IMG/VR virus record: IMGVR_UViG_3300012931_000892
Source: a virus
Strand: one strand, 5' to 3'
DNA: 20,270 bases
Shown here: in pieces, positions 1,480-1,992 of the stretch
How positions within the stretch are numbered: position 1 is the stretch's first letter
Layout of the letters: the number at the start of each line of letters is the position of its first letter
Notes under the pieces: model-generated
Seen by the model: the letters and a program-made list of their open reading frames with translations, nothing else
Told to the model about the DNA's origin: nothing
Database searches by the model: none
Position numbers and translations under genes: made by a program

Positions 1480-1992
1480 TCAAAAGGCGAAACCGGACTG
1501 GGTCTCGGCGATCAGGGTCCTGACGGCATCCTCGCGGCCATCATTGAGCATCTGCCTCGGGGTCAGGCCGTCGAAGACCCGGATCGGCATGTCCATCCAA
1601 TCCTCGACCATGTTCCTGTCGAACCCCATCCCCGCCAGGGCGTCAACGATGTTGCGCGCCTCGTACTCGATCCCGCAATCCACATGGTCGAAACAGACCC
1701 ATCTGTCGCCCTTGACCCTCTTCATCTTCCGGTAGTCGCGCCACTTTCGGCAGTGGGTACACCTGACGTCCAGACGCACTACCGCCTCGACATCGCTCTT
1801 GGACAGGTTCTCGGCAAGCCTCTCGATGATCTTGCCGGATTCGGCCAAGATCTCCCGTGATCGCCGGAATAGGGCCGCCTCGGGCCACGGCCGGATGCCT
1901 AGCCCGCAGATATGACAGAATTCCGCGTCCTCCACCGACCACACAAGACACCGAGGACATCTGATAGACATTGTAACGCTAAGATCGTCCAT
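1480..1992 (-). CDS. Zn-ribbon protein with a C-terminal DUF2384-like (Xre/MbcA/ParS antitoxin toxin-binding) domain
   Basis: ATG at 1990-1992 with AGGAGG 7 nt upstream. Two CxxC..CxxC clusters (CPRC..CHIC; CTHC..C..HVDC). The C-terminus '..EDWMDMPIRVFDGLTPRQMLNDGREDAVRTLIAETQSGFAF' matches the W..P..LGG.TP..LL.T..G...V..L..I..G pattern of DUF2384. Confidence 0.45.
   Translation of the reverse strand: MDDLSVTMSIRCPRCLVWSVEDAEFCHICGLGIRPWPEAALFRRSREILAESGKIIERLAENLSKSDVEAVVRLDVRCTHCRKWRDYRKMKRVKGDRWVCFDHVDCGIEYEARNIVDALAGMGFDRNMVEDWMDMPIRVFDGLTPRQMLNDGREDAVRTLIAETQSGFAF

Follow-up and report, generated by a model that had tools for sequence, protein, structure and literature searches.

An orphan DUF2384 antitoxin-type domain joined to two zinc modules in a phage genome: a possible inhibitor of host RES-fold NADases

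Introduction

RES proteins are "typically paired" with DUF2384 (PMC3482391), and in the four toxin-bound complexes known from papers or solved structures a DUF2384-type domain blocks the active site of its RES or ParT partner. In one of these systems the C-terminus of MbcA enters an arginine-lined cleft of MbcT; removal of the last 10 residues of MbcA abolishes neutralisation, and removal of the last two weakens binding (PMC6436930). DUF2384 has also been reported as a fusion to LK-nucleases, where it was described as an HTH-like domain (PMC2848206), and RES is therefore not its exclusive partner.

Defence against phages by RES-domain NAD+ phosphorylases has only lately emerged as widespread, and it comes on top of the RES-Xre TA modules. 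As stand-alone proteins (aRES) these enzymes occur in ~4% of genomes and defend their hosts by converting NAD+ to ADPR-1''-phosphate; phages answer them either with a macrodomain phosphatase or with blockers of the active site, the aRad1 proteins (10.64898/2026.01.28.702374). No phage inhibitors other than aRad1 have so far been described, and aRad1 is unrelated to the cellular antitoxins. A different answer was suggested by Freire et al. in 2019, who described an MbcA homologue (gp52) in mycobacteriophage Ibhubesi as a possible anti-defence protein (PMC6436930); we found no later test of this idea in the papers searched. Counter-defence by an orphan antitoxin has been shown experimentally for the DarG-like AdfB (PMC11825919).

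Here we describe a 170-aa protein encoded in 20,270 nucleotides of DNA from an uncultured large phage (IMG/VR record IMGVR_UViG_3300012931_000892). An ENA contig of 83,189 bp, ERZ27227667:k141_4595205, contains this stretch, referred to below as the window, at 100% identity. What is new in the protein is its zinc-ribbon architecture; orphan phage DUF2384 proteins, and the proposal that they act against host defence, were already known.

Results

Gene boundaries and expression signals

1480..1992 (-): gene for the 170-aa zinc ribbon-zinc ribbon-DUF2384 protein (ZnR-ZnR-DUF2384), an ATG-initiated ORF with its stop codon at 1480-1482; from the ORF list
1997..2004 (-): ribosome-binding site AGGAGGGG, 4 nt 5' of the ATG at 1992; read directly from the sequence
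2005..2048 (-): terminator-like hairpin (stem-loop 2048..2015) with a T-rich tail, between the MVP-like gene and the 170-aa gene; from a terminator scan

The N-terminal sequence MD/MN..(F)V..SIRCPRC is common to four homologues of the 170-aa protein, including P0002, P0004 and P0005, and the ORF coordinates 1480..1992 are therefore right. The public JGI gene call for the same locus (P0001) begins at an internal GTG and, at 151 aa, is too short. This start leaves out the first CxxC in zinc ribbon 1, and the first zinc site would consequently escape automated annotation. The hairpin at 2048..2015 has a 15-bp stem with 11 G-C pairs, and its RNA fold has an energy of -45.8 kcal/mol (z = -3.3).

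The C-terminal domain and its tail

1483..1671 (-): DUF2384 / Xre_MbcA_ParS_C toxin-binding domain, residues 108-170, ending S-G-F-A-F-COOH

Taken alone, the 170-aa protein matches PF09722 weakly (E=3e-3; 17.9 bits, or 20.9 for the isolated domain, against a gathering score of 24.5). The same weak match lies at the same place in P0002 and P0003, which are 53% and 40% identical to it, and the NCBIfam model Xre_ParS_antitoxin/TIGR02293 also matches weakly at the DUF2384 position. Precomputed PF09722 matches are recorded for P0005, a full-length member of the family, and for P0036, a stand-alone member. Across the family the signal is stronger, with 11 of the 13 aligned C-terminal domains (alignment A2) matching PF09722, the best of them with E=4e-9. 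A profile made from alignment A2 matches residues 61-113 of MbcA (6fkg_C) with E=1.7e-8, and VPA0769 (8gug_B), the Xre protein of P. putida (6gw6_B) and ParS (6d0h_B) more weakly, with E-values of 0.03-0.6.

Foldseek finds the same set of proteins, Xre, MbcA, VPA0769 and ParS, with probabilities of 0.28-0.92 (~0.9 for the top Xre and MbcA chains), and the helical fold of the solved antitoxin C-terminal domains is present in the 170-aa protein. By profile and fold comparison, then, the C-terminal ~60-80 residues are a genuine DUF2384 domain of the MbcA/Xre/ParS/NatR type. The initial annotation had named this domain correctly, but its length of about 45 aa was too short; the PF09722 assignment that it put forward holds for the family, although the 170-aa protein itself falls below the gathering score.

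The domain is located at the extreme C-terminus, where the tail runs three residues past a conserved Gly (SGFAF; G-x-x-x-COOH). In HMMER alignments this tail length equals that of MbcA and VPA0769. Eight of the 13 family members keep the exact G+3 tail and four (P0003, P0004, P0008 and P0012) do not have it.

The zinc modules and the linker helix

1900..1965 (-): zinc ribbon 1, residues 10-31; ligands C12, C15, C26 and C29
1798..1881 (-): long linker helix, residues 38-65; from the AF2 secondary structure
1672..1773 (-): zinc module 2, residues 74-107; C78, C81, C100 and C106, with a basic W-R-D-x-R-x-M-K loop

The first zinc site has the pattern C12-x2-C15-x10-C26-x2-C29, and all four cysteines are kept in each of the six sequences that have the region (alignments A1 and A3). 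In the second, C78-x2-C81-x18-C100-x5-C106, the residues C78, C81, R85, M90, K91, C100, D102 and C106 are invariant in 8/8 sequences (A1 and A3), a count that includes P0028 and P0030, whose C-termini differ. The fourth ligand of this module is probably C106, because H103 varies. In the AF2 model of the 170-aa protein, residues 10-32 and 75-100 form β-hairpins, residues 38-65 a helix, and residues 103-165 a four-helix C-terminal domain; the mean pLDDT of 78 and pTM of 0.42 indicate that these domains are flexibly linked. The modelled linker helix is a possible dimerisation element, and it is deleted in the branch comprising P0003 and P0004 (alignment A3).

The zinc region gives sub-threshold DZR/Zn_ribbon matches in Pfam. 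Scores for PF12773 (DZR) are 13.1 bits for the 170-aa protein, 23.2 for P0002 and 19.3 for P0003, all below the gathering score of 27.3, which amounts to a general zinc-ribbon resemblance and no more. Neither Pfam nor NCBIfam detects an HTH family in the protein, and a profile search of its N-terminal 110 residues against the PDB gives no match below E=0.5. The first reading of the gene, as a DUF2384 domain fused to two zinc modules and lacking an HTH, is upheld by the invariant Cys4 sites, the AF2 hairpins and the absence of an HTH match. The zinc region was also considered as a mimic of the N-terminal domain of aRES, and this is ruled out by an hhalign probability of 0.2%.

Zinc module 2 is also seen at the N-terminus of two shorter proteins, P0028 (111 aa) and P0030 (116 aa), in the form C-x-H-C...M-K...W-L-C-F-D-H-V-E-C, followed by unrelated C-terminal regions. 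Its pairing with other C-termini suggests that it is an independent, mobile and previously undescribed small zinc module.

Distribution of the family

An exhaustive HMMER search of 1.84 billion representatives returned only 35 relatives. They include full-length proteins (P0004 and P0005), proteins with part of the architecture (P0008 and P0012) and stand-alone proteins of 59-84 aa; P0002-P0005 have both start and architecture in common with the 170-aa protein. The stand-alone phage proteins, such as P0017 and P0036, match positions 110-168 only, and the existence of such domain-only versions indicates that the DUF2384 domain is a functional unit that acts in trans.

Relatives of the 170-aa protein were found neither among the cultured phages of INPHARED (blastn and tblastn) nor in an IMG/VR search nor in 185,579 species genomes, and a scan of JGI metagenomes for the family gave locus L011 and the fragment L012 only. 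The family is known solely from metagenome and SRA assemblies. PADLOC and PHROGs contain no family for the 170-aa protein or for the 90-aa and 85-aa proteins encoded next to it.

Genome context

2064..4634 (-): MVP-like gene, 856 aa; MVP_shoulder E=2e-26, Vault_3 E=4e-11, weak Vault repeat
1195..1467 (-): 90-aa gene, 12-nt gap downstream of the 170-aa gene; N-terminal TM helix and conserved CxxC-x17-HxxC
941..1198 (-): 85-aa gene, overlapping the 90-aa gene by 4 nt; family not detectable
1..921 (-): SPFH/Band_7 gene, 306 aa, 20-nt gap after the 85-aa gene; PF01145 E=3e-22, phrog_200 E=1e-59

Among the plausible window genes of at least about 85 aa (30 proteins) there is no Pfam match to RES/ART or to any other toxin family, and phmmer (--max) searches of six-frame window segments of at least 40 aa with published aRES sequences find nothing. 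The inspected part of the 83-kb contig comes to ~30 kb, made up of the window and 10 kb beyond window position 1 (locus L018). This extension has no RES gene and encodes a second nucleotidyltransferase, a 4HBT thioesterase, a metallophosphatase, a TnpB/Cas12f-like protein, an Rv2179c-like exonuclease, an endonuclease VII and a CCA-adding/HD enzyme. No tRNA genes were found. RES/ART genes are likewise absent from six further contexts of the family (L007, L008-L010, L013, L014, L015 and L020; 3-20 kb each). All seven contexts, independent of one another and including the window, are phage-like, and their downstream neighbours are mutually unrelated by BLASTP.

The only Pfam match of the 90-aa protein is to PF13796 (Sensor; E=0.026, far below threshold), and it has no RES match. 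The protein is 76% identical in L001, and its finger (C..C...WWHxxC) resembles the first half of a LIM/PHD-type finger. Its gene is not found beside P0003, P0005, P0008, P0012, P0017 or P0036, and the 90-aa and 85-aa genes are both limited to the sub-lineage of the window, L001 and L016. A conventional toxin-antitoxin pair with the next gene was considered and rejected: the 90-aa and 85-aa proteins give no RES/ART signal, both are absent beside other members of the family, and the neighbours are unrelated by BLASTP. The initial annotation had seen no RES/ART partner adjoining 1480-1992 and had taken the next gene for a 90-aa membrane Zn-binding protein and not a RES toxin. Both statements stand, the latter on the TM helix and CxxC-x17-HxxC motif, and its proposed search for RES (PF08808) is negative for the window, the 10-kb extension and the six other contexts.

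Phage homologues of MVP are unusual, and the shoulder domain of the MVP-like protein here is itself SPFH-like. The MVP-like protein is 87% identical in L001, where it has 858 aa, and there is a strong terminator hairpin 3' of its gene. Four genes downstream of the MVP-like gene lies the SPFH gene, followed in L001 by a 196-aa protein whose sequence suggests several membrane passes; L018 has a 185-aa protein at this position. The MVP-like, SPFH and small TM proteins may together form a membrane-associated cassette. The five-gene order from the MVP-like gene to the SPFH gene is kept in L001-L006 and L016-L019. In L007 and L008, the MVP-like, 90-aa, 85-aa and SPFH genes are all missing. These two loci have an upstream synteny in common (a 118-aa 'MPITTPETEK' protein, a lipoprotein-like protein of ~170 aa and an 86-aa protein) and so belong to the same phage lineage. 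Since the cassette genes are missing there and the neighbours are unrelated, we conclude that the family has no conserved adjacent partner and is no constant member of the MVP-SPFH cassette.

NAD-related and other neighbouring genes

5889..6557 (-): NadD-type NMN/NaMN adenylyltransferase; TIGR00482 E=1.7e-29, 103 bits against a cutoff of 112; PF01467 E=5.7e-11

The gene at 5889-6557 had been recognised at the outset as a NadD-type NMNAT, and the TIGR00482 match agrees. A wider NAD theme nearby had also been proposed; it amounts to this one gene, and the 30 kb covered contain neither Nampt nor PnuC nor a NadR-like kinase. Among known phage pathways, NARP2 requires Nampt and Nmnat, and NARP3 requires PnuC and NadR. 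The related L008 phage lacks the NMNAT gene. The link of this gene to NAD counter-defence is suggestive only, and the enzyme is a possible second NAD-related counter-defence gene. A second gene of cytidylyltransferase type, encoding 153 aa, is located 10 kb away in the same genome (L018 14556-15017).

Several other neighbours carry recognisable domains. An RNA ligase is encoded at 7545-8258 (-) (PF09414 E=3e-22), and the metallophosphatase and CCA-adding/PolyA_pol+HD enzyme are encoded at L018 15800-16639 and 20298-20921. These RNA-repair genes suggest counter-defence against tRNA-cleaving systems. The first 8 kb contain just one clear plus-strand gene, at 6608-7315 (+). Its 235-aa product has several CxxC pairs and, at the C-terminal end, an HNH-like motif ('CCWWCN..K'); its Pfam matches are weak ones only, to NinE/Stc1. 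The gene, which separates the NMNAT gene from that of the RNA ligase, is likely to be an insertion coding for a homing HNH endonuclease.

Farther along, 10314-11684 (-) encodes 456 aa with a sacsin-like/HATPase N-terminal ATP-binding domain (NF047352 E=2e-6; phrog_6077 E=4e-54), 18773-19036 (-) an 87-aa GIY-YIG nuclease (E=3e-14), 19033-19476 (-) a 147-aa protein with an M50B-like membrane peptidase motif, and 19713-20255 (-) a radical-SAM fragment truncated at the window end. The TnpB/Cas12f1-like gene of the extension (L018 17190-18644; 484 aa) has OrfB_IS605 and Cas12f1-like_TNB domains.

Evolutionary rate

Rates were compared for a single pair, the window phage and L001, which are 78.6% identical in nucleotide sequence over 4.7 kb.

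ZnR-DUF2384: aa identity 52.9%, dN 0.356, dN/dS 0.30
MVP-like: aa identity 86.7%, dN 0.090, dN/dS 0.109
90-aa TM: aa identity 75.6%, dN 0.123, dN/dS 0.162
85-aa: aa identity 72.6%, dN 0.193, dN/dS 0.123
SPFH: aa identity 87.9%, dN 0.085, dN/dS 0.081

The ZnR-DUF2384 gene is the fastest of the five, at about 2-4x the rate of its neighbours, and is still under purifying selection; within it the DUF2384 segment is the most divergent part (46% identity, dN 0.45). Fast evolution under purifying selection is common in proteins that face a changing host target. The high rate, especially in the DUF2384 part, would be as expected in an arms race, an argument that is rough because dS is near saturation and a single pair is compared.

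Discussion

We propose that the phage carries a captured antitoxin domain as a counter-defence protein. During infection the DUF2384 domain would bind a host RES-fold NAD+ phosphorylase/NADase or ADP-ribosyltransferase, either a RES toxin belonging to a RES-Xre module or an aRES defence protein that acts alone. Its acidic C-terminal tail would insert into the arginine-lined NAD+ pocket, as that of MbcA does in MbcT, and NAD+ depletion and abortive infection would thereby be prevented. By analogy with the known antitoxins, the expected mechanism is direct blockage of the active site, for which 'decoy', the term in the initial annotation, is the wrong word. The zinc modules and the long helix would take the place of an HTH/dimerisation domain and might serve oligomerisation or avidity, much like the N-terminal domains of MbcA and Xre, or contact a second protein or a nucleic acid; this step is speculative and the least certain of the scheme.

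Orphan status in phage contexts, the existence of domain-only versions, the kept tail and the fast rate all fit anti-RES counter-defence. The neighbourhood, as judged from its predicted genes, fits as well, being rich in counter-defence functions (RNA ligase, CCA-adding enzyme, metallophosphatase and NMNAT). In our estimate, blockage of host RES NADases by a captured antitoxin domain has an even chance of being the correct account of the gene. A fuller version, which we advance tentatively as possible rather than probable, is that a lineage of such uncultured large phages has a modular inhibitor, in which a fast-evolving DUF2384 'warhead' blocks RES/aRES NADases and the Cys4 module is a reusable scaffold that oligomerises the protein or targets it to nucleic acid or to a second site on the defence protein. 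If true, such an inhibitor would constitute a second, evolutionarily independent phage anti-RES class beside aRad1 and the first orphan antitoxin of the DUF2384 type known to be functional.

The searches for a toxin bear most directly on an alternative in which the 170-aa protein is the immunity or regulatory partner of an unlinked RES/ART-fold enzyme whose gene lies at another place in the phage genome (at least 83 kb). Such an enzyme might be an ADP-ribosyltransferase or NADase for host takeover, which the 170-aa protein would hold inactive until needed. In every solved complex DUF2384 is bound to a RES/ParT protein, RES domains are recorded in Caudovirales (PMC3482391), and our search covered ~30 of 83 kb. 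Nevertheless, no RES/ART gene occurs in that 30 kb or in the 3-20 kb around six other members, TA-like partners are nearly always adjacent, and the fast evolution of the gene better suits an external, changing target; we regard an unlinked partner of this kind as unlikely. The linked counterpart of this idea, that the protein is a component of the local cassette of MVP-like, 90-aa TM zinc, 85-aa and SPFH proteins, either as an adaptor or as the antitoxin of the 90-aa membrane protein in a module with a non-RES partner, draws on the co-oriented and tightly spaced genes (12-nt gap, 4-nt overlap and 20-nt gap) and on the conserved order in L001-L006 and L016-L019. Against it stand P0005, P0003, P0008 and P0012, which have no MVP, 90-aa, 85-aa or SPFH neighbours though the upstream phage synteny is kept, and further the unrelated neighbours across contexts, the terminator-like hairpin between the MVP gene and the 170-aa gene, and an evolutionary rate unlike that of the neighbours. 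We consider a role within the cassette quite improbable.

The zinc region raises a different alternative, in which the protein is a nucleic-acid-binding regulator that binds DNA or RNA through its zinc ribbons and basic loop, with DUF2384 merely an HTH-like or oligomerisation domain and no toxin involved. The basic residues R85 and K91, conserved between the ligands of zinc module 2, would be consistent with this, as would the description of DUF2384 as HTH-like in nuclease fusions (PMC2848206) and the double function of Xre-RES antitoxins as transcriptional repressors (PMC12204516). On the other hand, stand-alone phage versions of 59-84 aa have no zinc module, the conserved free C-terminal tail is a toxin-plugging element and not a DNA-binding feature, and Pfam, NCBIfam and the PDB profile search detect no DNA-binding family in the 170-aa protein. 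A purely regulatory role therefore seems to us improbable, to about the same degree as an unlinked partner.

If phages do deploy a captured antitoxin domain against RES proteins, this would add a second inhibitor class beside aRad1 and would support the 2019 conjecture on mycobacteriophage MbcA homologues. Orphan DUF2384 would then be a sequence-searchable marker, predicting which phages escape RES defence, including defence by MbcT-type toxins, which are considered drug targets in M. tuberculosis. How inhibitors of this type acquire avidity or targeting might be learned from the fusion to the zinc modules.

Compared with the described RES-Xre/ParST antitoxins (MbcA, Rv1990c; Xre of P. putida; VPA0769; ParS; and NatR), the 170-aa gene stands without an adjacent RES/ParT gene. 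Two Cys4 modules and a long helix replace the N-terminal HTH/dimerisation domain, or the MbcA-like helical domain, of those proteins. Moreover, the protein comes from a lytic-looking large phage and not from a bacterial chromosome or plasmid, and its own PF09722 score is below threshold. Its nearest counterparts among phages are Ibhubesi gp52, BFVD A0A6J7XBF0, W8E8Q2, P0017 and P0036, which like it are orphan DUF2384 proteins without a RES partner and for which an anti-defence role is only proposed. The stand-alone phage DUF2384 proteins consist of the domain only, in 57-84 aa, whereas the 170-aa protein has ~107 extra N-terminal residues and two zinc sites.

In its proposed function, that of a small phage protein filling the NAD+ pocket of a RES enzyme, the 170-aa protein would resemble aRad1 (Osterman et al. 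2026). The two are unrelated in sequence and fold, and aRad1 uses a flexible loop and a Trp rather than a C-terminal tail; an HMM built from seven aRad1 sequences (aRad1a-g) gives no match better than E=0.2 in any frame of the window or the related loci. The logic would be that of AdfB and the chimallivirus DarG-like proteins set against DarTG, in which a phage captures the antitoxin half of a host TA system as an orphan (PMC11825919, PMC13309987). AdfB and the DarG-like proteins, however, are enzymes (NADAR/macrodomain) that reverse ADP-ribosylation of DNA, whereas the 170-aa protein would act stoichiometrically, by blocking the active site of toxins from another family.
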